Origin: a virus
Direction: 5' to 3' (one strand)
Virus record (IMG/VR): IMGVR_UViG_3300025128_006668
Location: 32,001 to 96,000 of that record
Length of the DNA stretch: 64,000 nucleotides
Part shown: positions 2,246-54,900 of the stretch, piece by piece
How positions within the stretch are numbered: the first letter of the stretch is position 1
Layout: each line of letters begins with the position of its first letter
Notes under the pieces: generated by a model
What the model was told of the DNA's origin: nothing
What the model saw: only the letters and a program-made list of their open reading frames with translations
Databases searched by the model: none
Translations under genes and position numbers: made by a program

Positions 2246-3361
2246 ATGGCATATCAAAATGCAGACGGTACTTTAACAGGAACAAATGCTGCCGATCCGC
2301 AATTTGGCGTCTACAAAGGCGCCATCTCTGCGGGGCAGAACTCTTCTGTTGATGGAACCGTATTCGATTTTAAAGCCGTCGTTACAGACCCCGACTTACC
2401 GTTAGTCGTATCGGGTTTGAATAACGAGGCGGCTGGCGCAGGAACTTACAATAAAGAAATTGGCGGTTCAGTAGCAAACCTAGGGGACAACGACAGTGTT
2501 TTTGATGCTGTTTCTCCCGGAGCAGACTCATCTAATGACGACGTGTCCGAAATTAAAGCTATTAGCGTTAGAAATTATAAAACTTTAGTCAGGGCTGGAG
2601 TTCTTAACAGTTATTCAGCAGCCCCAACAGCTTCATTTACTGGAATTAACTCTGGGATTTATGACCAGAATGTAGCAGGAGATGTTTCAACTAACATTAC
2701 TGCGATTGACTCAGCGACTCTAAACAATGTCTTTTATGATGTCACATACGTTTATGGAGGAATAACAACTCAGTTTGTTGCTCAAGACATACAAGTAGGT
2801 GGAATGAGTCCCGGAAGCAACACTAGATGTAGTTGCACTAGCGCTCCTACATACAACGATGCGATTAACCCATTTTCTGCCTGCGGTAGTGGTTTAATCA
2901 CAAATCCTAACAGGTGGGTAAGCTGCACTACCAAAGGAAATGTTGATGGTAAGTTCTACTTTGCCTGTGTTGAAAAGGTTGCTTGGTGTGCTAGAGGCGA
3001 TGCTACTAATCCTGCTTCTTCAGGCTATGTTGTTATAACTGATGTAGACAACTACTCTACTACGGCTGGATTTAGATCAAGCGGACCTAATAGTGGACAG
3101 TTTCGGTGCGATTGGGTTTATAACATTGTCCCAATTAACCCAACGGGAAATTGCGATGACGGTGTTGGTGGCGTCGTAGCCCCTACGCTGTGTTCAGATG
3201 CCCCTATGTCCATGCATCGGGCCTATGAAGACCAGCTTGAGAATGTAAGTTCTTTTGGTCCAGAAGGTCATGCAATTTGCGGTACTTGGATTGGAAAAGA
3301 CAGTCTTTGTCAGTATGATCCTAGATCACATGGAACAACTTGTTCTTGGGCATGGCAATAA
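2246..3361 (+). CDS. Putative virion protein, paralog family member 2, with Cys-rich C-terminal domain
   Basis: GAGG RBS upstream. VSGLNNEAAGAGTYNK and NYKTLVRAG match member 1; the C-terminal half is Cys/Trp-rich. Confidence 0.6.
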   Translation: MAYQNADGTLTGTNAADPQFGVYKGAISAGQNSSVDGTVFDFKAVVTDPDLPLVVSGLNNEAAGAGTYNKEIGGSVANLGDNDSVFDAVSPGADSSNDDVSEIKAISVRNYKTLVRAGVLNSYSAAPTASFTGINSGIYDQNVAGDVSTNITAIDSATLNNVFYDVTYVYGGITTQFVAQDIQVGGMSPGSNTRCSCTSAPTYNDAINPFSACGSGLITNPNRWVSCTTKGNVDGKFYFACVEKVAWCARGDATNPASSGYVVITDVDNYSTTAGFRSSGPNSGQFRCDWVYNIVPINPTGNCDDGVGGVVAPTLCSDAPMSMHRAYEDQLENVSSFGPEGHAICGTWIGKDSLCQYDPRSHGTTCSWAWQ

Positions 3362-3363
3362 TA

Positions 3364-3705
3364 ATGAAGAGTTTATTAATCGCAGTATTACCCCCGTTCT
3401 TAGTCGCTGCCGGAGACACAATCACCGGCTTCGACTGGGGGACTATTTCCGCCACAGGTTTACTTGGCTGGTACTTGTGGTATACAACTAAGATAGTTTT
3501 TCCTAGCCATCAAAAACAGGTCTCTGAAATGCAAGACAGTTTCAACGATCAGTTTGTTAACCAAAGAGATCACTATGAAAAAATATTGACCGAGATACAA
3601 AACCGTCAAGACAAGAGACACTCTATAGATGTTCAAAAAATGGACAAAATGGTAGAGACTCTTGAAAAAATGAGTGAGAATCTTGAGCCAATAGAGAACT
3701 CATAG
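3364..3705 (+). CDS. Small membrane protein (possible holin/lysis accessory)
   Basis: Signal-like N-terminus MKSLLIAVLPPFLVAA, TM segment WGTISATGLLGWYLWY and a coiled-coil C-terminus. ATG 3364 follows the upstream stop and is preferred over the track's 3340. Confidence 0.55.
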   Translation: MKSLLIAVLPPFLVAAGDTITGFDWGTISATGLLGWYLWYTTKIVFPSHQKQVSEMQDSFNDQFVNQRDHYEKILTEIQNRQDKRHSIDVQKMDKMVETLEKMSENLEPIENS

Positions 3706-8417: not shown

Positions 8418-9674
8418 ATGATTGATTTTATATTTGACAGAAGGAATTTTTTAAGAATAGGTTCTATTGGAGCAGGCATGTCGGCAGTGGGACTGTCTGA
8501 CTTTGCTCTAGGATCGCAGGATTTTACTAGTTATAAAGATAAAACCGTAGTCTGGGTATGGCTAGGAGGTGGCCCAACGCAATTTGAAACCTTCCACGCC
8601 CCTAACGACACTGTCCCTTCAGAATGGCAGCCTGTAAATGGCGCTATACATGACGCCAAGACCAACATCACTTTAGGCGCAGACTGGGTAGAACTTGCAA
8701 AACATACTTCAAAGTTAAGTATAGTCAATTCTTTCAGTCATAAAGACTCGTCTCACAGACAGGGGACGCACTTTATGATGACAGGACATTACAATCCCGA
8801 AAGAAGTACAACATCTATTGCTAAATACCCCTCTTTTGGGTCTATAGTCTCAGCCATTTATGGTGCAAATCACTCTAGTAATGGAGTGCCTACTTATGTT
8901 AAGCAAGGTAAGATTGAAGGAGATGAGGGCGCTTGGTTGGGTGGAGCATTTAAACCATTTGATCCTTCCAATAAAGATAACCTCACACCAAGAGTTGAAC
9001 TCGATAGGTTCTCAACAAGAAAAGAACTACTCGCAGGATTAGATGCTGCAAGAGTTTCCAGCAAAGGAGCTGAGTCAGTACAGTTTTACAAAGGTCAGGC
9101 TTATGATGTTATCCTAGGTTCCGCTAAAGAGGCTTTTGCTGTAGAAAAAGAAAGCGAAGCAACGAAAGCTCTTTATGGGTCTACAAAAGCTAAGGATATT
9201 GGCGAACAGCTTATCTTGGCTCGAAGACTTGCAGAAAATGGAACACGATTCATAACCCTTCATTATGGTGGATGGGATATGCATAGCAATATATCTAAGG
9301 CAATGCAAGGAAAAGTCCCTCCTTTGGATAAGGCTCTAGCAGGCTTCTTGCAAGATATACAAGACAGAGGGATGAGTGAGAAGGTTCTTCTGGTTGTAAC
9401 CGGAGAGTTTGGTAGAACTAAGTTTAATGCAAATGCAGGTAGAGACCATTGGCCTGCAATTACCCCTATGCTTATGGCAGGTGGAGAATATGAGTCCGGA
9501 AGAACGATTGGTGCTGCTGACAGATCCTATAATCCAATTGAAAAACCTGTAGGGCCTCTCGATTTACAGGCAACTTTATTTGACCACTTTGGTATTGACA
9601 CAGCAATTCAGCGTGTTGATAATGGCGGTCGTCCAAGATATTTACTAGAAGGTGAAGCTAAGGTAATTTTATAA
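8418..9674 (+). CDS. DUF1501 family protein 1 (Tat signal)
   Basis: DRRNFL Tat motif, WLGGGPTQFETF, ARRLAENG, GGWDMH, GEFGRT, GRDHWP. Confidence 0.9.
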   Translation: MIDFIFDRRNFLRIGSIGAGMSAVGLSDFALGSQDFTSYKDKTVVWVWLGGGPTQFETFHAPNDTVPSEWQPVNGAIHDAKTNITLGADWVELAKHTSKLSIVNSFSHKDSSHRQGTHFMMTGHYNPERSTTSIAKYPSFGSIVSAIYGANHSSNGVPTYVKQGKIEGDEGAWLGGAFKPFDPSNKDNLTPRVELDRFSTRKELLAGLDAARVSSKGAESVQFYKGQAYDVILGSAKEAFAVEKESEATKALYGSTKAKDIGEQLILARRLAENGTRFITLHYGGWDMHSNISKAMQGKVPPLDKALAGFLQDIQDRGMSEKVLLVVTGEFGRTKFNANAGRDHWPAITPMLMAGGEYESGRTIGAADRSYNPIEKPVGPLDLQATLFDHFGIDTAIQRVDNGGRPRYLLEGEAKVIL

Positions 9675-11092
9675 TGAAAGATAATAAGTATTTACAAGCT
9701 GTAGGAGATCACTTAAACGAGGAAGGGTTTACAGAGGAGCTTACTGAGGCTAACTTTGTTATCCCTGAGGAATCTGACTACATTGACTTTGGAGAAGAAA
9801 CCGAAGAGTGGGACGTTGCCGCAAACCGTCCCGGCTTGTGGGAGAATATAAGAAGGAAGAAGCTTAGAGAGGGCAAGAATTATAAACCTGCTAAGACGGA
9901 GAAAGAAGGGCGTCCAAGCCAAAAGGAGCTCAAAAAAGCTCAGAGCGCACCTAGAGACCCTAGAAGAACTCCTGCTCCTAAAAAAGACCAAAAGAAAGGC
10001 TCTAAAAAGAATAAGCCCGATAGCGCTAAGAAGCCAAACAAAAGTATCAAGTTCAGCAAAGAGGTAACACAGCAGCTGTCTAATAAAGTCAAAGAACATA
10101 ATGCTAAAGACAAAGGTTCTAAGGCAACGCTCGGAGCGCTAAAAGCAGTTTATAGAAGAGGCGCTGGCGCTTACTCAACTAGCCATGCGCCAAAGATGAG
10201 TCGTCATGGATGGGCCATAGCAAGAGTCAATGCTTTCTTGTACCTATTAAGAAATGGAAGGCCTAAAAACTCTGGCTACAAACAAGACAATGACCTTCTC
10301 CCAAAAGGACATCCTAGAAAAAGCTCTGCCGGTATGAAAAAGAAGTACTCAATGGGCGAAGGCAATGAGGATGTGTTCACGAACCCCGGAGAAGCAATGA
10401 AAAGAGCCAAAGAGCTCGGGCTAGACGACATTCATACACATAAGACTGATGACGGTAAGACTATCTATATGCCGGGTAAAAATCACGAAGAGTATATGAA
10501 GACTGTAACCACAAAAGGGCCCAATTATAAAAAGGTATATGCTGGTTATAAATATCAAGATCCCAAGACAGGTGAAATGTACACCTTCAGAAGAAGAGGC
10601 GTTTACAGAAAAGATGGTCGAATACTAATTCCTGTAAGAGGATCTAAGGCTCATAAGGCAGGACCAATGGAAGACCATGTGTTCACAAGCAAAGAAGCCG
10701 CCATGAAGTTTGCGAAAAAGTTCGACGACTTGAGTGACAATGTCCATACTAAAAAGACCGGAGACGGAACTGTTCTTTATATTCCCGGAAAGAATGAAGA
10801 AGAGTTTAGAAAATGGTACAAGTCGCATAAAGGGGAAGATGCTAAAGGGGCTGAGTATCAAGGTAGAAAAGTTACTCTCAATAAACCGTTTAGAACACCA
10901 GACGGGCCAAAGAAAAGATCTGTCTATGTTAAGAATGAAAAAGGTAATGTAGTTAAGGTCAACTTTGGTGATCCTAATATGAAAATCAAAAAGAACATAC
11001 CGGAGAGAAGGAAGAGTTTTAGAGCTAGACACAACTGTGATAACCCCGGTCCAAAATGGAAGGCAAGATACTGGTCTTGTAAGGCATGGTAA
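9674..11092 (+). CDS. Basic multi-module phage protein (possible internal virion/DNA-binding protein)
   Basis: Very Lys/Arg-rich. Contains a LKAVYRRGAGAY...WAIARVNAF module, two copies of an FT...A...A....H......Y.PGKN.EE repeat, and a C-terminal AEYQGRKV...VNFGDP...SFRARHNC...ARYWSC module recalled from large aquatic phages. Confidence 0.7.
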   Translation: MKDNKYLQAVGDHLNEEGFTEELTEANFVIPEESDYIDFGEETEEWDVAANRPGLWENIRRKKLREGKNYKPAKTEKEGRPSQKELKKAQSAPRDPRRTPAPKKDQKKGSKKNKPDSAKKPNKSIKFSKEVTQQLSNKVKEHNAKDKGSKATLGALKAVYRRGAGAYSTSHAPKMSRHGWAIARVNAFLYLLRNGRPKNSGYKQDNDLLPKGHPRKSSAGMKKKYSMGEGNEDVFTNPGEAMKRAKELGLDDIHTHKTDDGKTIYMPGKNHEEYMKTVTTKGPNYKKVYAGYKYQDPKTGEMYTFRRRGVYRKDGRILIPVRGSKAHKAGPMEDHVFTSKEAAMKFAKKFDDLSDNVHTKKTGDGTVLYIPGKNEEEFRKWYKSHKGEDAKGAEYQGRKVTLNKPFRTPDGPKKRSVYVKNEKGNVVKVNFGDPNMKIKKNIPERRKSFRARHNCDNPGPKWKARYWSCKAW

Positions 11093-11288: not shown

Positions 11289-12596
11289 ATGAAATGTAGA
11301 GGAAACAATATTGCTCGCCGTTCTTTTATACATGTCGGAATGGCAGGAGGAATAGGATTAGGTTTATCAGATTTTTTTAGAATCAGAAAAGCCCAAGCAG
11401 ACCAAAAGTTTTACGAGAGCGTAGAGGGGCCAGCAAAGTCTGTTATCTATATTTATCTGCCCGGCGGTTCTGCGCATCAGGAAACATTTGATCCTAAACC
11501 GCTGTCTCCGTTAGAGTATAGAGGCCCAATGGCTAGCATTGAGACAAATGTTCCCGGAATCAGACTTAATGAGATGATGAAAAACACTGCTAAGCTAATG
11601 GATAAGATTTCCATCATTCGCAGTATGACACATGGAGAGGCAGCGCATGAACGAGGCACACATAATATGTTTACTGGCTATAGACCTAGTCCAGCACTCC
11701 AATATCCTTCCATTGGTTCAGTGGTTGCACATGAGTTTGGCCCACGTCATAACTTACCACCTTACGTCTGTATCCCCAATCAGCCTAATGAGTTCGCAGG
11801 TACTGGATATCTAAGTAGCTCATTCTCAGGCTTTAGTCTAGGTTCTGACCCTGCGAGTGACGGGTTTCAAGTTAGAGACTTGAAGCTTCCTAATGGTGTT
11901 AATGATGGTCGCTTTGGAACACGTCGCAAAATGCTGGGTGCTGTCAATGACTATTTTGCAACTAAAGAAAAATCAGACTCTCTGGATGCCGTAGATTCTT
12001 TTTATGATCGTGCTTACAGCTTGATTAGCAGCGAAAAAGCCAGAGATGCTTTTGATATAAACAAAGAGGATGCTGTAACTAGAGACAGGTATGGTAGAAA
12101 TACCGCTGGAGCCAGAATGCTTTTGGCTCGTCGGTTAGTCGAAGCAGGGACGAGGTTTGTAACGCTAACTTATGGTGGCTGGGATATGCATGATAATATC
12201 GAAGCCGGAATACGAAGACAAGTCCCAGCTCTAGACCAAGGACTAGCGGCATTGATAGAAGACTTAGACCAAAGAGGTCTTCTTGAATCAACCTTGGTAT
12301 GTGTGGCTTCTGAGTTTGGCAGAACCCCAAAAATAAACGCCAATTCAGGAAGAGACCACTGGCCTAAAGTGTTTAGCACCCTAATGGCAGGAGGTGGAAT
12401 CAAGGGCGGTTTAGTATATGGAAAATCCGATGCGACCGCTAGTGAGCCAGAAGAAAATGCTGTAGGAGTGGAAGACTGGGCATCTACGATTTATAATAGG
12501 ATAGGGATCGTCCCCGATAAAGAGCTTATGGCTCCCGGAGATAGACCTATTGAAATTGTAGATGGTGGTAAAGTTATTCAAGATTTAATTATTTAG
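11289..12596 (+). CDS. DUF1501 family protein 2 (Tat signal)
   Basis: ARRSFI, YLPGGSAHQETFDPKP, ARRLVEAG, GGWDMH, SEFGRTP, GRDHWP. Confidence 0.93.
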   Translation: MKCRGNNIARRSFIHVGMAGGIGLGLSDFFRIRKAQADQKFYESVEGPAKSVIYIYLPGGSAHQETFDPKPLSPLEYRGPMASIETNVPGIRLNEMMKNTAKLMDKISIIRSMTHGEAAHERGTHNMFTGYRPSPALQYPSIGSVVAHEFGPRHNLPPYVCIPNQPNEFAGTGYLSSSFSGFSLGSDPASDGFQVRDLKLPNGVNDGRFGTRRKMLGAVNDYFATKEKSDSLDAVDSFYDRAYSLISSEKARDAFDINKEDAVTRDRYGRNTAGARMLLARRLVEAGTRFVTLTYGGWDMHDNIEAGIRRQVPALDQGLAALIEDLDQRGLLESTLVCVASEFGRTPKINANSGRDHWPKVFSTLMAGGGIKGGLVYGKSDATASEPEENAVGVEDWASTIYNRIGIVPDKELMAPGDRPIEIVDGGKVIQDLII

Positions 12597-12609: not shown

Positions 12610-12807
12610 ATGAAAAAAAGAATTCCAATTATAGCTATTATTATAGTAGTTGCGATATGTATCGCAAACAAAGATGAAATTAAACAAATGTTTAACAAAG
12701 GAGAAGATAAAGTGGTAAATTGTTCAATCTGTGTAGAAGAATGCCCATGCGTAGAAGCTGAATGCGTCTGCAAGGCAACTTGCAAATGTGATAATTGTGT
12801 TAGCTAA
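12610..12807 (+). CDS. Membrane-anchored metallothionein-like Cys-rich peptide
   Basis: GGAG RBS, N-terminal signal/anchor, C-terminal CSICVEECPCVEAECVCKATCKCDNC (9 Cys in 26 aa). Confidence 0.7.
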   Translation: MKKRIPIIAIIIVVAICIANKDEIKQMFNKGEDKVVNCSICVEECPCVEAECVCKATCKCDNCVS

Positions 12808-12824: not shown

Positions 12825-14108
12825 ATGTTAAGTTTATCAAGAAGAAGTTTTCTGTCAGTAGGAGGTTTAGGCCTTCTTACTATGCCGCAGGTATTACGCG
12901 CTCAAAATAATAATGGGACATCCCACAAGGCTGTGATTAACATCTTCCTTGGTGGTGGCCCTCCGCATCAAGATATGTGGGATATAAAGACAGAAGCTCC
13001 ATCGGAGATTCGAGGACCATTTAAGCCGATCCCGACCAATGTGGCGGGAGTGCACATCGGGGAATGTTTCCCTGAAATTGCTTCAATGTTTGATAAATTT
13101 ACAGCTATTCGTTCTGTAGTAGGATCTGATGGATCACATGATGGATACCAGTGCGTTACTGGATGGAGTCGTAAAGACATGGTGTCCGGATCTAGCTATC
13201 CAGCTATTGGGGCGTGCGCCTCTAAAATATTAGGCCCTGTTGACCCTGCTGTACCGGTTGCAGTAGGGTTAGCGGAGGCTACTCAGCATATGCCTTGGTC
13301 AGAAGCAGGAGGAGCTGGTTATCTTGGAGATACCCATAAGCCTTTCAAGCCAAATGGCCAAATGATGAAAGACCTTAAACTCAATATGGAAGTAGAAAGG
13401 TTTAAGAATAGAAAAGCCCTTCTTAATGGTTTTGCAAATATCAATAAGCAGATAGACAAGGCTGTTAATGTTGATACGTTTACTGAAGAGGCGTTTGGAG
13501 TTCTTACTTCAAGCTCTTTAGTTGATGCTTTAGACTTGTCAAAAGAAGACGCAAAGATTAGAGAAATGTATGGAGATGGTAAGCCGTTTAAATTCCAATA
13601 CGACGGAGCGCCCACAGTTAATGAGCATGTGCTTATGGCTCGCCGCTTAGTATCTGCTGGGGCACGCTCTGTCACACTATCATACGGAAGGTGGGATAGC
13701 CACGGATCTAACTTTGATCTAGTCAGAGATCATGGAGCCAAGCTAGACCAATGCGTATCGGCTCTTGTTAAAGATCTTGATCAACGAGGTATGCTTGACG
13801 ACACACTTGTTGTAGTATGGGGAGAATTTGGCAGAACCCCTAAGATCAACCCAAAGGGTGGTCGTGACCACTGGCCGCAAGTTTCTGCAGCACTACTAGC
13901 AGGAGGAGGATTCAATCACGGGCAAACCATCGGAGAAACCAATAGGCTTGGGGAAGTTCCAGAGTCCAGACCTGTGCACATACAGGAAATCTGTGCAACA
14001 ATGTATAGAGGTCTAGGTATCGACACGATGTCCACAACTTTATTAGACAATACTGGAAGACCTCAATATCTTCTAGATCACAGAGAGCCTCTAAAGGAGT
14101 TAATTTAA
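12825..14108 (+). CDS. DUF1501 family protein 3 (Tat signal)
   Basis: SRRSFL, FLGGGPPHQDMWD, ARRLVSAG, WDSH, GEFGRTP, GRDHWP. Confidence 0.93.
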   Translation: MLSLSRRSFLSVGGLGLLTMPQVLRAQNNNGTSHKAVINIFLGGGPPHQDMWDIKTEAPSEIRGPFKPIPTNVAGVHIGECFPEIASMFDKFTAIRSVVGSDGSHDGYQCVTGWSRKDMVSGSSYPAIGACASKILGPVDPAVPVAVGLAEATQHMPWSEAGGAGYLGDTHKPFKPNGQMMKDLKLNMEVERFKNRKALLNGFANINKQIDKAVNVDTFTEEAFGVLTSSSLVDALDLSKEDAKIREMYGDGKPFKFQYDGAPTVNEHVLMARRLVSAGARSVTLSYGRWDSHGSNFDLVRDHGAKLDQCVSALVKDLDQRGMLDDTLVVVWGEFGRTPKINPKGGRDHWPQVSAALLAGGGFNHGQTIGETNRLGEVPESRPVHIQEICATMYRGLGIDTMSTTLLDNTGRPQYLLDHREPLKELI

Positions 14109-14392
14109 TGGTTAAACTAAATGATTGGGTTCAAAGAACTAAGTTTCCCCTTGAAGGAAACGCAGCATTTGACTGACATGAGTACTCTATCGCACAGGTT
14201 GTGCGTATTGATGAAGAGTGTGTGGAAGTAGACTTTGCATGTAGCTGTATGACTTTTGATGGAAGCAGCAAAAAGCTTTGGGCTCATGGAGAATATCTTC
14301 CTCTTGATGATGAGTCTTATGCGAAACATAAAAAGGCACATGACGCCTGTTGTCTTTTTGGAGAAGAACTGGAAGTAGATTATGCAACGTAG
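14108..14392 (+). CDS. 94-aa Cys/His-rich protein with in-frame UGA at 14174-14176; candidate selenoprotein
   Basis: ATG overlaps the upstream stop (TAATG) and the frame continues through a single TGA to TAG 14390-14392, overlapping the next start. A SECIS-like hairpin lies directly 3' of the UGA. Confidence 0.55.
14183..14220 (+). promoter_or_regulatory. Bacterial SECIS-like stem-loop
   Basis: Apical hairpin CGCACA-GGT-TGTGCG (14191-14205) with the loop starting 20 nt after the UGA; lower stem TACTCT/AGAGTG. Confidence 0.5.
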
Positions 14393-15599
14393 AAATTTTT
14401 TGAAACATTTATCAGTATTCCCTACCTTATCTTTAATAGAATCTCTTAGAGCTAATGAAGAGGAGCTAAAGAAGAATGGTAAGTCAGCTATCTTATTATG
14501 GATGGGCGGTGGTCCTTCAACAATGGATATTTGGGACTTGAAACCGGGTGCTCCTACAGGAGGCCCATTCAAACCTATCGGTACATCTGGAGATGTTCAG
14601 ATCTGCGAACATATGCCCCTCATGGCAAAGCAGATGCATAATGCTGCGATTATTAGAAGTATGAGTACGAGAGAAGCGGATCATATGCGTGGAAGATATT
14701 ACATGCATACGGGCTATGTTCCCAACCCAAGCATGACTCATCCTAGTTATGGATCTGTCATATCGCATCAGCTCCAAAGACCAGAAGTTTCTATCCCTAA
14801 ATTTATCTCCGTTGGAGGAGGCAGTATGGGAGCTGGTTTTTTGGGCGCTAAATATTCGCCGTTCGTTGTTAACAGCGATGGTAGAATAAGAAACCTAAAT
14901 ATGAAAGTAGACCAAAGATTCTACCAAAGAGCATATGCCTTGGACGCTATAGAAACAAGCTTTATAAATCAAAGAAGAGGTTCTGCTGCAAAAGAACATC
15001 AAGCTATACTGAAAGAAGCTTTTGGAGTACTCACAAGTTCCCAGATGGATGCTCTCAAGGTAGCTGGTGAGCCAGAGAATGTAAAAGAGAGATATGGAGA
15101 TAATGGTTTTGGTAAAGGATGCTTAATGGCTAGGCGACTAGTCGAAGCAGGAGTTCCATTTATTGAAGTCAATCTTGGGGGATGGGATAATCACCAGAAC
15201 ATTCATCCTATGTTAAGAGATACTAAGTTGCCTATGCTTGACCAAGGCATGAGTGCGTTGTTTGAAGATTTAGAACAAAGAGGGATAATTGATGACACTG
15301 TAGTTATTTGGATGGGAGAGTTTAGCAGAACTCCCCGTATCAACCAGAACGCTGGACGTGACCATTGGGCGCGTAGCTGGAGCGTTGTTGTTGGAGGAGG
15401 CGGAATGAACGGAGGCATATCTATTGGAGAAACAAGCTCCGATGGGACTAGAGTTGAGACAGAACCACATACATCGCAAGATGTTATGGCATCTGTGTGT
15501 AAAGCCTTAGGCATTTCGCTTGGCACAACATTTACTAGTAATAACGGCAGACCTATGAAAATTGCCAATTCTGGTAAGATTATTAAAGAATTATTCTAA
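14382..15599 (+). CDS. DUF1501 family protein 4 (Tat signal)
   Basis: QRRNFL, WMGGGPSTMDIWD, ARRLVEAG, GGWDNH, GEFSRTP, GRDHW. Confidence 0.93.
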   Translation: MQRRNFLKHLSVFPTLSLIESLRANEEELKKNGKSAILLWMGGGPSTMDIWDLKPGAPTGGPFKPIGTSGDVQICEHMPLMAKQMHNAAIIRSMSTREADHMRGRYYMHTGYVPNPSMTHPSYGSVISHQLQRPEVSIPKFISVGGGSMGAGFLGAKYSPFVVNSDGRIRNLNMKVDQRFYQRAYALDAIETSFINQRRGSAAKEHQAILKEAFGVLTSSQMDALKVAGEPENVKERYGDNGFGKGCLMARRLVEAGVPFIEVNLGGWDNHQNIHPMLRDTKLPMLDQGMSALFEDLEQRGIIDDTVVIWMGEFSRTPRINQNAGRDHWARSWSVVVGGGGMNGGISIGETSSDGTRVETEPHTSQDVMASVCKALGISLGTTFTSNNGRPMKIANSGKIIKELF

Positions 15600-15895
15600 T
15601 GAAATTTTATCGAAACGCAGTCTATGTTCTTGCAACCCTTTGTTTCTTTAATATGTTACAAAGTGCTTATGTCTACAAAAAACTTGTACAAATAGAAGAG
15701 AAGCAAAATAAAATAGAGGTTAAAATACCCATTTCAGAGGATCTGAAGGAATTGCCCTTACATACTAGACTTAGAGACTCCCAGATAATGCAGGCAATCC
15801 TTATGACGCATCACCAATTAGGGGTACATGATCCGGGCTCTCAGCCTATGTGCCCTATGTGTCAACAACAGGGATTAAAAACAGTATCAGATTAA
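15599..15895 (+). CDS. Membrane-anchored protein with C-terminal HH...H...CPMC motif
   Basis: TAATG overlap, N-terminal TM segment, possible metal-binding tail. Confidence 0.65.
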   Translation: MKFYRNAVYVLATLCFFNMLQSAYVYKKLVQIEEKQNKIEVKIPISEDLKELPLHTRLRDSQIMQAILMTHHQLGVHDPGSQPMCPMCQQQGLKTVSD

Positions 15896-48998: not shown

Positions 48999-51900
48999 TT
49001 AACCACATCCGGGATTAGCACAATCACAGAATCCACCATCATTAGTTATTCCTTTGAACAAGCCACAGTCACTGAAGTTTAGAGTGACATAGTTAATTGA
49101 CAGTTTATCACCCGTGCAGCATACATCTCTAACGACTGTTATTCCAGTTGAAGTTCCTCCAGCACAGAAAGGATCAAGCTCAATATCTATTCCACATGCG
49201 TCACCTGCAGTTGCAGTAGCCTTGATGCCACAACCAAAGTTGAAATCCTCTATAGGTCTAGAGAAGTTTCCTGAGCAGGCTGTTACGTTGAAATATGTTC
49301 CGATATTTTGCACGCAAGCATTTGTTCCATTTTTGACAAATGCTATACCCGGACCTGCACCTATCGTTCGTATATCTTGATTGACGCTGGGCGCTGACAA
49401 TGCAGTGAACGCACCGCATGCTAGCTTTCCGTTATACTCTAAAGGTATTGCATCTAAGAAATAATCACAGCTTCCTGATGCAGTAAACTTAACACCATTT
49501 CTAGCAAAAATATTCCTAAAATGATTATGCTGGGCATTAGTAGGAGAACTGGTTGGATCTCCGCAGCCGTCTTCACTAGGGACATTAGCAAGGCCCATGT
49601 AAATATCAACAGATGCGGTGCCATCAGCAGAAACCTCACCTATCCTTAAACCTGTCCTGAAATCAACGCAACTAACACCTTCGCATGATGTTATCGCTCC
49701 TGCAGGTGTACATGCCGCTGTGTCTTTAATTGGTGTGCATGAGTGAATTGTAAACTCACATGCTTTCGCAGCGTTAGCCGCACCTTCGTCAATGACGCTC
49801 ATGCCACTACCAAAGTTCAACTTGGAGAAGAACTTGTAATCAAAGTCATCGTCTGGACTGCAATAGCTAGCGGTAGACTTAATATAGTGATCAGCAGAAA
49901 TACCGTACTCACATTTGCCACCAGCTATTTCATGAAGGCGAAGGCCTGTTCCGGCAACAAGTGTCCTGAAGTAAGTTCCTCCAAGACTGAGGTCTGCTGG
50001 TCTAGATACAGTAGGTGTCCATCCGCAATATGCCTCGTCTCTTATAAACCTTTCAGTGTGAATATTGTACTCGCAGTTACTGCCTCTTAGTATGAATCCA
50101 GTGCCGAGTGTAAGCTGATCGAAGTGAACAGGACCATCAACACTTCTGGTGTTGTTACAATGCTGGGTAGAGTCTATTAATCTTCTGGCATTAACTATTG
50201 TTGTCTTAAAATCTGGAGCAGCTCTATATATTCTTAATCCAGTTCCATAGGTTGTGCACTCAGTATCGCTACATGCATTTATAGGGGCCTCACTAGGAGT
50301 GCTCGGAGGCGTATATCCGCAGTATCCTGAGCCTCTAGTTTGATGGACTGAGCCACTTCCGCTTCCACCTGAACCACAGGCAAATATATGATACTCACAA
50401 TCTCCTCCGGTTACGCCTATACCCTCTCCAAAGAATAGGTGCGTGAATGGTTGCTTATTGATACTAGTGCTTGTATCCTCGCACGTTGTATCTGTAGATG
50501 TTATATACTGAGGTGCAGCTATCTCGTAATTACAATTGCCAAGATCTGTGACTGCAATACCCGTGCTAAACTTCAGATCCTTAAAGAACTTTTTACCAGC
50601 TATAGAAGCTAGACCACAGTTGGCGCCATGACTAATAGTTCTGTCAGAGTCAATTGTGAACAAGCAGTCCGAGCCTTCAGATATGACAAGCCCAGAACCA
50701 AATTCTAGCGTCTTAAAGAACTCAGCGTTGGTTTCGGTATAACAAGTAGCATCAGAGTGTTTAATCGAGTGATTAGCATCAATTCTATACGTGCAATTCG
50801 ATTCTGCTTTTAAGTTCAGACCAGAACCTAAATTCAATGTATTAAAGTGAGCTTCAGCAACCGCTGATTCACCGCATGTACTTGTCTTCTTAATCTTTCT
50901 ATATGCAGAGATATTAAATTCGCAGTTAGAGGCTGAATCAACCTTTATACCAGAACTAAAATTAAGTGTTCTAAACTGAGTCTCAGCAACCGCTGGCACA
51001 CCGCAATCAGCAGTTTTCTTAATCTTAAAGTCGGCATCTATAAAGTACGTGCAGTCTCCAGCATCTTGCACTCTGAGTCCGCTTCTTGCCTTCAATGTCT
51101 TAAAGAATGCGTCAGATATGGTAGTTGGCTGGTTACAAGAAGTAATATCGGTAATATAGTGATTTGCATTTACTCGGTACTGACAGTTACCCATATCCTG
51201 CAGATAAAGACCTGTACCAAAGTCCAGCCTATTAAAGAACTCGTATGAGCCTACTTTATGATTGCTCTGGCAAAGATTAGTATCTTTTACATAATGATCT
51301 GCTTCTATTGAAAAATCTTTACAGTCACCTTCCGTAAAAGCATTGAGCTTGAGCCCTTTATCAAAGGCTAGGTTTCTGAATAAATTTCTGCCGTTTACAG
51401 AAGGGTTATAGTTGCAATAACCAGAATCTTCAACGGTTACATTTAACCCTATAACAAAGTCGCAGTCCGAAGCATCAGAGACCTTAATACCACTTGTGAA
51501 CTTAAGATCTTGGAAGAATTTCTTATCTACTTCAACACCATCGGATTCGCAAGGATCTGCAGATATAGTCCTATCAGAATCTATGTTGAATGCACAAGTA
51601 CCCGTGCTGTCAATTGTAAGGCCGGAACGGAATATTAGCCTGTCAAATATAGAAGCGGCACTGCTGCCTCCTGCACAAACTCCAGAATCTTCTATCCACA
51701 TTGGAGATGTTATTTCAAAGTCACAAGCATTCTCATTTGCCTGAACAACCAGACCAGTGCTGAACTTAAGGTGTCTAAAGAACTTATCGCTTACCGTGTC
51801 TCCACTGCAATATGGTGCTGCGCTAATATTATGGTCTGCATGGAATGTATAATTACAATCTCCAGTATTTTTCAGATAAAGACCTGTTCCCGCAACGATA

Positions 51901-54900
51901 GTCCTAAAGAAGTTTTCATTAGGATAACTCGAAGTCCTTCCACAATAGTCATCTCCTCTGACAAATCTTTCTGCACTTATTTCATAACCGCAATCAGATC
52001 CACCACTCTCAACTATAAGCCCACTCTTAAACGACAAATCAGTGAACACCGCATTAGTTACTAAATCCCTTCCGGGAGGACAAGGATGAAGGTCTGATAT
52101 TTTGAAGTCTGCATCTATTGATGCTACACAGTCTTCCAACTCAAGCTTAAGACCTGTACCTACGACAATATCATCAAAGAAAGAAAACTCTCCCGTGCCA
52201 TCATCGCCACATGGAGACGACGCTATCTCGTGCTGGGCATCAATCGTGAAGACGCAGCCATCTCCACTCACAGATAGACCAGAACCAAATTTTAGCTCAG
52301 TAAAGAACTCGTTAGATACAAGGTCGCCGTTTCCGGTATTGGTGCAGTATCCCTCATCTGACACAGTATGGTCAGCATGAATTGTCGGATTGCAACTATC
52401 TGATCCTGAGGCTGTGCCGACGTATAACCCACTTCCAAAAGTCAGACATTCAAAAACATGACAGTCGGAAGACCCCGTCCCGTTACCTACTCCGCAATAC
52501 CCCTCGCTAGCAACTTTATAAGGTCTGGCGTGAACAGATATAGACTGAGTGCAAGACTCCCCTGTCTCTCCTGTATATACATTAAGACCCGAGCCAAAGT
52601 CTATATGAGTGTACTTAACACTCGGAACCCCTGCTCCCTCTCCGGCTTTTATCTCCGCATAGCCAAGCTGATCTTCGGCAACCGCATCATCACATTGACC
52701 GCCAGTTAGACTACTAGCTGTGCTTATAACAGAAACTCGCGCGACTCCACAGTCACCACCGCCCTCTTCAGAGGCGCCACCCGCAAGACCAAACCCAAAC
52801 TCTATAGACTGGGCTGCAGATGAGCCTTCACCAGAGCATACGGTAATATCTATACCTGCCAAGGTTGATATATTGAATTCAGTTTCACAATCAGTCTCTG
52901 ATATAGTGAAACCTGTACCAAAAGTTAAATGAGTATATGGGAAACATATATCTGTATCTATCAGTCCGCTTTCAAATTCCTCTCTTTCAGCTCCAGTCAG
53001 TCCTGTCGGTATACAAGGTTCCACAGAAGAAGACAAGGTTAGGTCGCTATTAATCCTGAGCGCAAACATAAAATCGCCAGTATTTGTACCTGTCTGACAC
53101 ATGGTTCCGCTTTTTATGTCGTCCGACGCAGGAAAGCCATCTTTAGGTATCTTATAAATCTCAGCAAAGACACCAGTTCCAGCTACTAAAGGAGTCTTCA
53201 AGTCCCAGCCAGTAATAGGCGATAAAGCACTTATTGTGTTTAAATCTATAATCCCAGTATCTGAACAGGCTCCAGATTGATTGCCAGTTGCACACTGATG
53301 CCAATTCAAGACATCTACACAGAATGAAGGAGCACCTGCCGTGATAGGGTGATAAGCGCACTCTTCACTGTCCCAATAAGCTAAGACACTAGTGCCAGAC
53401 TCTAGTGTTCCAGCGCCTGCAAGAGTATTACTGATCTTTATATTGTATCCAGTCGTAGGATGAATAAGTCCGCCCTCTGAGTCATAGGCTGGTCTAGGGT
53501 TACTGATACGAGCATCTCCGGTCATGCCTCCTTCAATCACTCCAGTCCCAATTTCAGCGTGAATTATTCTAAAGCTATTTGGAACTGTCCATACTGCCCT
53601 TTCTCTGTCATACCTTAGATCTAAAGGCGCTACAGGCCAAGTCTTGGGCTGACGTAGCCACTTATCTAAAAACTTATCCTTCAGTCCAGCAGTTGTAAAA
53701 TTCCCCGCTTCGGCATTGCTAACAACATCCGCCTTATTAGGTACTGGTTTTCCTTCTAGGTCATATCCCCATCCTTGAATAAGTAAAGGACCTCTGGTTG
53801 CAATAGCTCTAAGGTCTTGGGGATAGTTTCCAGTTCTGAGATTATGCATGTAGGTGTCTGGACTGTCTGCTCCAGAGCCGTGATTTAATCTCCTTACATT
53901 ATTATTACCATAGCCAGTGTGGTTAGGGTCATCTGAATGCTTACTATTATGATAAGTATAATAAGGATCTAGATAATCTATATTAATAGCGGGAGGGGTC
54001 CAGTCAAGGATAGGTGGGTTTACTTGTCTAGTGTTAGATCTATAAGCCAGAGGCATTGGCGACTCGCCAGTAGGGCATGCCTCCCCGTTTTTACTAGCAT
54101 AGCGAGCAAGATGACTATTATTGGGTGCTGTGCCTGATTTACTTATGGGTAAATACAGAGCGTCCCAACTGACGAAAGAACCACTGTCATCAGGAGGTGT
54201 ATTCTTATACGTGTTACTGGATGGTGTGCTAGCATCTACAACCGGATCTTCTGAATGCGCAGCTACCCACTCGGGCTTTGCATTGGTTTGAGTCATAGCT
54301 AGAAGCTGACCGCCAGCATTTTCTACATTCTTTGCATCCTCAAGGGCCTTAACACTTCCTTTAAGACCTTTAATCTGTTTATCATGTTCAGCAAATTTCT
54401 TATTCTGTTGATCCCTAAGCCTCTGGTCTCTAAGCATCGCTTGACGAGCTTTAGCAATTCTAGCAAGCCTATTGGCATTGTACTTAGCAAACTTACCGAA
54501 CGTTGGTGCAAACGTATTGCACTGAATCGTTGTTGTTACTCCACCAACACCAATGTTTGCGGAAATATTAGTGATACTGGGCCCAAGTGTACCAGCCCAA
54601 GCTTCTGTATCGTAAAAGAAGTATGGGATGGCTATACCGCCTACTACGAGACTAGCCTGCTGAAGGCTAAATGTATTGAAACTTTCTAAGTCAGCATTAA
54701 GCTCTTGCCCTAATCTCTTCTTTGGGTATCCGGGCATAGTAAATGTACCCTTTTCGCCCTCTTGCATAAACGTAGCGCCATCTGCGGCTAACGTAAATCC
54801 TGCTTGCTGCATCTGTGAATAGCTATCATGTGTCCAAGGATTGAGAGAGGAGTCTTCTCTAAAAGACACCTGACCGGGAGGACCTTGAGCAAACCAAGGA

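Follow-up and report, generated by a model that had tools for sequence, protein, structure and literature searches.

A 94-codon frame with an internal UGA between two DUF1501 genes

The DNA analyzed here (hereafter the window) is a stretch of 64,000 nucleotides (nt) from an uncultured large marine phage, positions 32001-96000 of the 125,401-bp IMG/VR record IMGVR_UViG_3300025128_006668, whose completeness is estimated at about 52%. Between two DUF1501 genes of the window, DUF1501-3 and DUF1501-4, lies a small gene of 94 codons. Its codon 23 is an in-frame UGA, and downstream of this UGA is a hairpin resembling a bacterial selenocysteine insertion sequence (SECIS). The gene is a candidate for a phage-encoded selenoprotein, in which the UGA would be decoded as selenocysteine (Sec). 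Its parts and its two neighbors are listed below in window coordinates.

14108-14392, plus strand: candidate selenoprotein gene; 94 codons, consisting of 93 sense codons and UGA at codon 23, followed by TAG
14094-14099, plus strand: Shine-Dalgarno-like AAGGAG, with an 8-nt spacer to the ATG at 14108; inside the end of DUF1501-3
14108-14110, plus strand: start codon ATG, whose first base is the last A of the DUF1501-3 TAA (14106-14108)
14108-14173, plus strand: N-terminal 22 codons ahead of the UGA; D6, W7, R10, T11, P14, F21, and D22 are invariant
14174-14176, plus strand: in-frame TGA, the proposed Sec codon 23; TGA in 70/70 and 4/4 loci
14177-14389, plus strand: distal 71 codons; C45, C47, H78, and C82 are invariant, as are M48, W58, and E62
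14191-14205, plus strand: SECIS-like hairpin; arms 14191-14196 and 14200-14205 (6 bp), loop GGT at 14197-14199
14390-14392, plus strand: stop codon TAG; the end of the small gene overlaps the start of DUF1501-4 (ATG at 14382) by 11 nt
12825-14108, plus strand: DUF1501-3 (PF07394, E 2.1e-83); its stop shares a base with the start codon of the small gene
14382-15599, plus strand: DUF1501-4 (PF07394, E 2.7e-104); its first 11 nt are also the last 11 nt of the small gene

The initial annotation of this DNA had described the 94-codon frame, its overlapping stop and start borders, and the internal TGA, and all of these positions proved exact when the sequence was read again. It had also remarked that only the distal part of the gene is annotated, and the standard list of open reading frames (ORFs) indeed gives only the distal 63 residues (14201-14392). 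The hairpin starts 15 nt past the UGA, and the distance from the A of the UGA to the first G of the loop is 20 nt. A purine-rich AGGA/GGAG stretch occurs at the site equivalent to the Shine-Dalgarno-like sequence in six of the seven sequences of a homologue alignment (A1).

Conservation of the UGA and of the coding frame on both sides

Homologous loci were collected from viral and metagenome contigs. With the read-through protein as the query, viral contigs yielded 6 loci. Metagenome contigs were searched with an alignment, which led from 121 pattern matches to 52 confirmed loci. A second scan of viral contigs yielded 45 pattern matches and 18 confirmed loci, including the six contigs of the first viral scan. 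Codon 23 is TGA in all 70 loci (52 metagenome and 18 viral) at protein identities of 54-94%. By their 570-nt core these loci are 53 distinct ones, and the 87 nt around the UGA occur in 44 distinct versions. A second subfamily, which reads F-D-UGA-Y-P-W-S-I-A-Q-V at this position, has TGA in 4/4 loci (3 distinct versions). TAA, TAG, TGG, or a Cys codon occurs at the site in none of the 74 loci with DNA; Trp or another non-Cys residue, the substitution that the initial annotation had considered in homologues, is therefore not encoded in any of them. The UGA is followed by C in subfamily 1 and by U in subfamily 2.

Coding constraint extends across the UGA. In 41 distinct 270-nt sequences, codons 1-22 had mean entropies of 0.48/0.29/1.16 at codon positions 1/2/3, whereas the values were 0.00/0.20/0.97 in codons 24-27 and 0.54/0.40/1.14 in codons 34-90. 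Variation at third positions is seen on either side of the UGA in one common frame, and codon 22 is GAC in all 41 sequences. Homology confined to one side of the UGA, which had been raised as a possibility, is not what these alignments contain, as both similarity and coding periodicity are present upstream and downstream. No insertion or deletion was found in alignment A1 (7 sequences). Frameshifting was considered and rejected, since counting TGA as a codon puts the downstream sequence in the same frame as the upstream sequence.

A base-call error at the TGA, which had likewise been considered, is excluded. Contigs from two DNA sequencing runs that are not flagged as the source of the record (X9 and X11) show 0 differences from the window over 13900-14386 and 13900-14479. 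One of these runs is labeled as a sponge metagenome and the other as a marine metagenome. Transcription is not shown by the RNA data, in which run X17 has no contig over 14116-14259 and run X16, assigned to RNA only by guess, has one 151-nt contig over the UGA.

A covarying hairpin follows the UGA

The prototype of a bacterial selenoprotein gene is E. coli fdhF, in which the SECIS lies inside the reading frame and is read by SelB. SelB recognizes GpU in the SECIS loop, and the loop of the fdhF element is GGUC. In the small gene, the 6-bp helix is paired in 98.8% of the cells of an alignment of 41 distinct sequences, and its GGU loop is invariant. The first pair is C-G in 25 sequences, U-A in 15, and C-A in one, and the fourth pair is A-U in 32, G-C in 5, and G-U in 4. 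Three stem pairs do not vary at all, and the closing A-U pair opens in two sequences. The switch at the first pair couples a synonymous Ile change (ATC/ATT) with a replacement of Arg (CGN) by His or Gln (CAN), and the switch at the fourth pair couples a synonymous Ala change (GCA/GCG) with a replacement of Val (GTG) by Ala (GCG). Since each of these switches joins a synonymous site to a replacement site, selection at the protein level alone does not explain them. Third-position entropy falls to 0.58 in codons 28-33, and codon 30 is invariably CAG. Constraint at the RNA level is visible in these codons.

Controls were run on a two-helix structure that includes the lower stem. None of 500 column shuffles reached the observed covariation score, and sliding the partners by 1-3 columns left at most 64.8% of cells paired. 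Since column shuffles ignore relatedness, pair states were also mapped on a tree that FastTree built from 45 distinct sequences after masking of the hairpin (237 nt, no support values). On this tree, the U-A first pair appears in three separate clades and the G-C fourth pair in three groups, with parsimony minima of 4 and 6 changes.

The hairpin described in the initial annotation consisted of an apical stem carried on a lower stem, and only the apical part is borne out. The upper 6-bp helix with its GGU loop is conserved, covaries with compensatory changes, and is the sole helix predicted by RNAalifold. The lower stem (TACTCT/AGAGTG) is present in the window, but it is paired in 85.8% of cells and is absent from the RNAalifold prediction. 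In the excerpted description in PMC4605307, the bacterial SECIS is a hairpin that lies just past the UGA, has a stem of 6-8 bp, and carries a conserved G in its loop at a distance of about 20 nt from the UGA. The 6-bp stem, GGU loop, and 20-nt distance found here agree with this description. The 125-kb record contains a single copy of the hairpin core. An intrinsic terminator was rejected, as no U run follows the hairpin. A scan of 13900-14600 against Rfam (E up to 10) returned only a chance snoRNA row and is uninformative, given the uncertain Rfam content of bacterial SECIS models.

Forms of the small protein in databases

In protein databases, the small protein is present as 63-residue truncations, one cluster of which has 160 members, and in seventeen full-length forms. 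The residue at the site is Trp in 16 of the 17 full-length forms and Cys in one. Wherever the DNA could be checked, the Trp forms are gene-calling artefacts of a code in which TGA is Trp, on contigs of at most 1.1 kb. Two of them, P0002 and P0028, are the translations of loci L038 and L051 with TGA read as Trp, and P0012-like forms belong to subfamily 2, whose DNA has TGA. P0001 and P0035 carry Trp also at the position that is the terminal TGA in relatives. The cluster of P0002 contains four 94-residue members on contigs of at most 1,111 nt and seven 63-residue members on contigs of up to 143,679 nt. The same division, TGA=Trp calls on short contigs and the 63-residue truncation on long ones, was observed for P0001, P0002, P0011, and P0028-P0037.

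The small gene had no DNA or protein match in the collection of cultured or deposited phages. A scan of the genomes of 185,579 species, made with two peptide patterns only, found no cellular homologue of the small protein; its one 13-residue match lies antisense to a nuoG-like gene and was discarded as spurious. A profile built from the three remote homologues discussed below (P0015, P0024, and P0025) matched only these proteins themselves.

Proposed decoding of the UGA as selenocysteine

We consider it likely that the gene at 14108-14392 encodes a phage selenoprotein that is decoded via a bacterial-type SECIS by the SelB of the host. The conserved TGA, the coding sequence on both sides of it, and the covarying hairpin support the initial proposal of a Sec codon at this site. 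On every feature that could be tested, the predicted gene has the anatomy of a bacterial selenoprotein gene. The UGA at 14174-14176 would be decoded as Sec within one 94-codon frame, with the hairpin at 14191-14205 acting as the SECIS. When the UGA enters the ribosomal A site, host SelB carrying Sec-tRNA(Sec) and GTP would bind the hairpin and deliver Sec. We infer that SelB and Sec take part, that the host is a Sec-decoding bacterium, and that the protein has a metal or redox center.

In a remote homologue, P0025 (123 residues, from a contig of 1,031 nt, available as a protein record only), the residue aligned with the UGA is Cys, in the context P-F-S-C. P0025 keeps W7, P14, F21, S27, V31, C45, C47, M48, W58, E62, Y63, H78, and C82. 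P0025 was matched at E 2.8e-4 in an exhaustive HMMER profile search in which it was not part of the profile, and hhalign gave a probability of 97%.

Several observations weigh against Sec decoding. The search profiles carried Cys at the site (TGA read as Cys), which biases the alignment slightly toward Cys, and P0025 is the sole Cys homologue found. Trp stands at the site in P0015 and P0024, two further remote homologues available as protein records only, from contigs of 570 and 553 nt. In single-sequence folding, the hairpin is not more stable than shuffled sequences (z = -0.07). The initial annotation had pointed to the rest of the phage as a possible location of Sec genes, and none came to light there: selA, selB, and selD were not found in the 125-kb record, which holds about half of the genome. 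All matches of the tRNA-Sec model in this record fell below threshold and are ordinary tRNAs according to ARAGORN, and tRNA-Sec was not found in four related viral records. Since neither sel genes nor tRNA-Sec were found in the phage records, the phage would have to rely on the system of its host.

Alternative explanations of the conserved UGA

The main rival is SelB-independent leaky readthrough by a near-cognate tRNA such as tRNA-Trp, perhaps helped by the hairpin. Such leakage would yield a 22-residue peptide and the 94-residue protein in a set ratio, as in phage Q-beta, whose A1 protein is the product of leaky UGA readthrough. The frame does continue across the UGA, but if Trp were tolerated at the site, the one-base change to TGG would be expected, and it is found in 0/74 loci, among 44 and 3 distinct versions of the two subfamilies and down to 54% identity. 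A UGA followed by C is a weak termination context in E. coli, and this context is present in subfamily 1, whereas subfamily 2 has UGA-U. The Trp of P0015 and P0024 would suit leaky decoding; however, every Trp form that was matched to DNA turned out to be TGA on a short contig called under the TGA=Trp code, and P0025 has Cys rather than Trp. The lack of Sec machinery in the phage records searched is also consistent with leakage, but the position of the hairpin and its G-containing loop are those given for the SECIS in the excerpted text of PMC4605307. We therefore regard leaky readthrough as unlikely.

Alternatively, the UGA may be a true stop that ends a conserved 22-codon leader, with a separately initiated protein downstream and a hairpin that serves pausing or coupling. 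Standard gene callers do give a 63-residue product that starts from GTG at codon 32. However, this codon is GCG in 5 of 41 distinct versions (alignment A3), and nothing resembling a Shine-Dalgarno sequence is evident in the stretch from the UGA to codon 32. Locus L051, the GCG version that was read through, has no in-frame ATG, GTG, or TTG before M48. Since C45 and C47 are invariant, the distal part must be reached through the UGA and not by a restart. Codons 24-31, which such a start would leave untranslated, are under protein-level constraint in the same frame as the codons upstream, and the stop is never TAA or TAG in the 74 loci. A true stop at this position is thus very improbable.

The stops of the 56 large ORFs in the window are TGA in 15, TAA in 28, and TAG in 13. 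Since TGA ends 15 of these ORFs, several of them in ATGA overlaps, UGA is not globally recoded. A general reassignment or suppression of UGA in the phage-host pair, by a code 4- or 25-like table or by a suppressor tRNA encoded in the half of the genome that lies outside the record, finds some room in the TGA=Trp code of certain public gene calls and in a record that holds only about half of the genome, but it is hardly credible beside these functional TGA stops, the lack of a tRNA with anticodon UCA in this record or the related ones, and the passage of the TGA=Trp calls through genuine terminal TGAs (P0001 and P0035).

tRNA genes and the host

ARAGORN detected tRNA-Glu, tRNA-Asp, tRNA-Met, and tRNA-Arg together with a transfer-messenger RNA (tmRNA) in the whole 125-kb record (G000), and no anticodon UCA among them. 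In related viral records it found tRNA-Leu, tRNA-Arg, tRNA-Ile, and tRNA-Asp, again with no anticodon UCA. The four tRNA genes of G000 are clustered at 13-1410, and the tmRNA gene lies at 9443-9780 of its contig C1, upstream of the window, with the predicted tag peptide AEKNFSLAA.

In the atlas, the clusters closest to DUF1501-4 come from viruses and from Planctomycetota, which we take as no more than a lead toward a possible planctomycete host. The DnaE-like polymerase of the window, whose closest cultured relatives are at most 34% identical, does not point to a host. In the excerpts of PMC4807772, marine planctomycete isolates, including a Rhodopirellula, are described as having full gene sets for Sec insertion as well as selenoproteins. 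The same excerpts mention a tRNA with anticodon UAU in planctomycete tRNA clusters. A tRNA-Ile gene with anticodon UAU is present at 596-669 of locus L086 (record G002), beside tRNA-Arg(UCU) and tRNA-Leu(UAA).

As a separate observation on codon usage, an ORF of 1,721 residues in the window (58764-63929, minus strand) contains zero Trp (TGG) and zero Cys codons. The neighboring ORF of 2,713 residues (48999-57140) has 25 Trp and 84 Cys codons.

Predicted structure of the small protein

The product is predicted to be a small cytoplasmic protein without a signal peptide. The distal 71 residues match no Pfam family, and the protein family has no PHROG match. The whole superfamily, with the remote homologues included, keeps C45, C47, M48, W58, E62, H78, and C82 without change. 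The description in the initial annotation of a Cys/His-rich protein of an unrecognized family holds with the invariant C45, C47, H78, and C82. From this conservation, Sec23 and these four residues probably form a redox or metal center.

AlphaFold2 (AF2) predicts a five-stranded SH3-like barrel followed by a C-terminal helix. The best of the five models has a predicted local distance difference test (pLDDT) score of 76, and the others score 46-55. A Foldseek search gave no match at E 1e-3 or better. In the VIA comparison, the best Z score was 7.0, to SH3-like barrels of the KOW, PsaE, NdhS, and Tudor types, which is a common arrangement.

Relation to known selenoproteins and to viral recoding

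The candidate gene shares with bacterial selenoprotein genes a conserved in-frame UGA, and a 3' hairpin with a loop G whose RNA is also coding; a Cys-bearing homologue may be a further shared trait, going by the protein record of P0025. It differs from them in that it is phage-borne, that its family has no Pfam or PHROG match, and that its SelB binding and selenium content are predictions. Moreover, the putative Sec is located near the N-terminus in F-D-U-H or F-D-U-Y and is not part of a CxxU or UxxC motif. Judged by its sequence, the predicted protein is outside any known selenoprotein family.

Virus-encoded selenoproteins are named in the excerpts of PMC8310308, namely the glutathione peroxidases (GPx) of the poxviruses molluscum contagiosum and fowlpox. 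As far as these excerpts go, the poxvirus enzymes resemble the present case in that a virus gene relies on the Sec machinery of the host, and in fowlpox the SECIS is within the coding region. In contrast, they belong to eukaryotic viruses, derive from captured cellular GPx genes, and use a eukaryotic-type SECIS, whereas the phage gene has a bacterial-type hairpin and belongs to an orphan family. Phage stop-codon recoding, in which TAG or TGA is reassigned and suppressor tRNAs are used, is similar in the part of that literature covered here in that a frame runs through a stop and that genes are called with an alternative code. However, only a single codon in a single gene is concerned here, TGA is still a terminator, and no suppressor tRNA was found. 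In huge wastewater phages, tRNA-Sec has been annotated, and the covered text of PMC10747093 gives tRNA annotations only and names no selenoprotein gene. Both cases hint at the use of Sec by phages, with a tRNA-Sec in those phages and a candidate selenoprotein gene without tRNA-Sec in ours. The HesB-like (IscA-type) selenoproteins of bacteria, as excerpted from PMC1794560, are likewise small Cys/Sec proteins of metal-center metabolism, but they have no sequence similarity to the small protein, and the link is limited to the gene neighborhood of the L051 subgroup described below.

No phage selenoprotein emerged from full-text literature searches. A 2026 review of the prokaryotic selenoproteome uses none of the words phage, virus, viral, and virome, and the Secmarker paper does not mention phages. 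In its covered portion, the selenoproteome paper of the Global Ocean Sampling (GOS) study also does not mention phages and uses "viral" once, in the description of the expedition. The mechanism is of a known kind, and within the reach of these searches both the protein family and its occurrence in a phage are new. The supplements of PMC4807772 (Sec genes and selenoproteins of planctomycetes) and PMC2398784 (sequences of new GOS families) may bear on both host and novelty.

The UGA is present in every phage copy with DNA, and Cys is present in none. We give an even chance to a broader proposal, in which the family would occur essentially only in large marine phages and be obligately Sec-containing, the hosts would be Sec-decoding bacteria, possibly marine Pirellulaceae, and the Sec/Cys/His center would serve the DUF1501 enzymes. 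If so, these phages depend on the Sec machinery and the selenium supply of the host, their host range is restricted to Sec-decoding bacteria, and the small protein may be, for example, a redox or metal-delivery factor for DUF1501 enzymes exported by the twin-arginine translocation (Tat) pathway. Searches for Sec/Cys pairs, as in the GOS study, would tend to miss such a family because its Cys forms are nearly absent. Confirmation of Sec decoding would mean that bacteriophages exploit the UGA-recoding system of their hosts and would make selenium a further host resource on which phages draw. The UGA with its hairpin would then be a sequence marker that ties uncultured phages to Sec-decoding hosts, and a systematic annotation error in public databases, the 63-residue truncation or the Trp-containing artefact, would be corrected.

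The DUF1501 island and its neighborhood

The small protein is part of a phage island that encodes Tat-exported DUF1501 enzymes together with small proteins rich in Cys. The window has four DUF1501 genes (8418-9674, 11289-12596, 12825-14108, and 14382-15599; Pfam E 1.5e-68 to 3e-117). Genes for class I ribonucleotide reductase, the DUF1501 genes, small Cys-rich ORFs, and a PhoH gene surround the small gene, and replication genes for a DnaB-like helicase, a primase, and a split DnaE-like polymerase come next. A DUF1501 gene is found in the fetched flank at 43 of the 53 distinct loci and within 100 nt at 31. Nine of the ten loci with no DUF1501 match have a short flank on at least one side. The tenth, L041, has 4-kb flanks on either side and no DUF1501 match. 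A possible DUF1501 remnant, a 64-residue ORF whose N-terminus is of the RRN type, lies just downstream of its small gene.

The neighbor of the small gene differs by locus. It may be DUF1501-2-like or DUF1501-4-like, and in the L051 group the UGA gene has an IscA/HesB gene upstream and a membrane protein with an HH..CPxC pattern downstream. This IscA/HesB-family gene for Fe-S assembly (PF01521, E 4.7e-20) occupies 3658-3981 of L051 and lies directly upstream of the UGA gene. The initial annotation had suggested that readthrough could make the translation of DUF1501-4 selenium-dependent through coupling. Since the downstream gene varies among the loci, coupling to DUF1501-4 would be local and is not a conserved feature of the family.

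Several other small genes recur in the island. The product of an ORF at 12610-12807 (plus strand) is hydrophobic at its N-terminus and contains a run of Cys residues like that of a metallothionein; the counterpart of this ORF in L051 is at 3290-3463. Relatives keep this ORF between their DUF1501 genes, and several loci have it at 82-91% identity. The conserved pattern HH...H..G....CP.C is found in a small membrane-anchored protein that is encoded at 15599-15895 (plus strand), as well as at 4305-4661 of L051 and 5171-5458 of L041. This protein follows the island in most relatives, including loci that have no adjacent DUF1501 gene. Farther downstream, a protein of 1,132 residues with 40 Cys codons (15946-19344, plus strand) has no Pfam or PHROG match. 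L041 has a Cys-rich ORF of 898 residues at the same relative position. In L051, a glyceraldehyde-3-phosphate-dehydrogenase-like gene (PF02800, 4815-5828) is located ahead of PhoH.

Downstream of PhoH in the window, a 115-residue protein (20103-20450, plus strand) matches Zn_ribbon_8 weakly, at 28.1 bits against a Pfam cut-off of 34.4, and no in-frame TGA was seen in its gene. Zn_ribbon_8 is presumably the zinc ribbon of the FmdB type. An FmdB-family putative regulatory protein is listed among the selenoprotein families in the covered part of the GOS study. In the replication region, the DnaE-like polymerase (phrog_405) is split into two parts, 30885-32744 and 33849-35483 (plus strand), with two ORFs between them (32763-33434 and 33431-33856).

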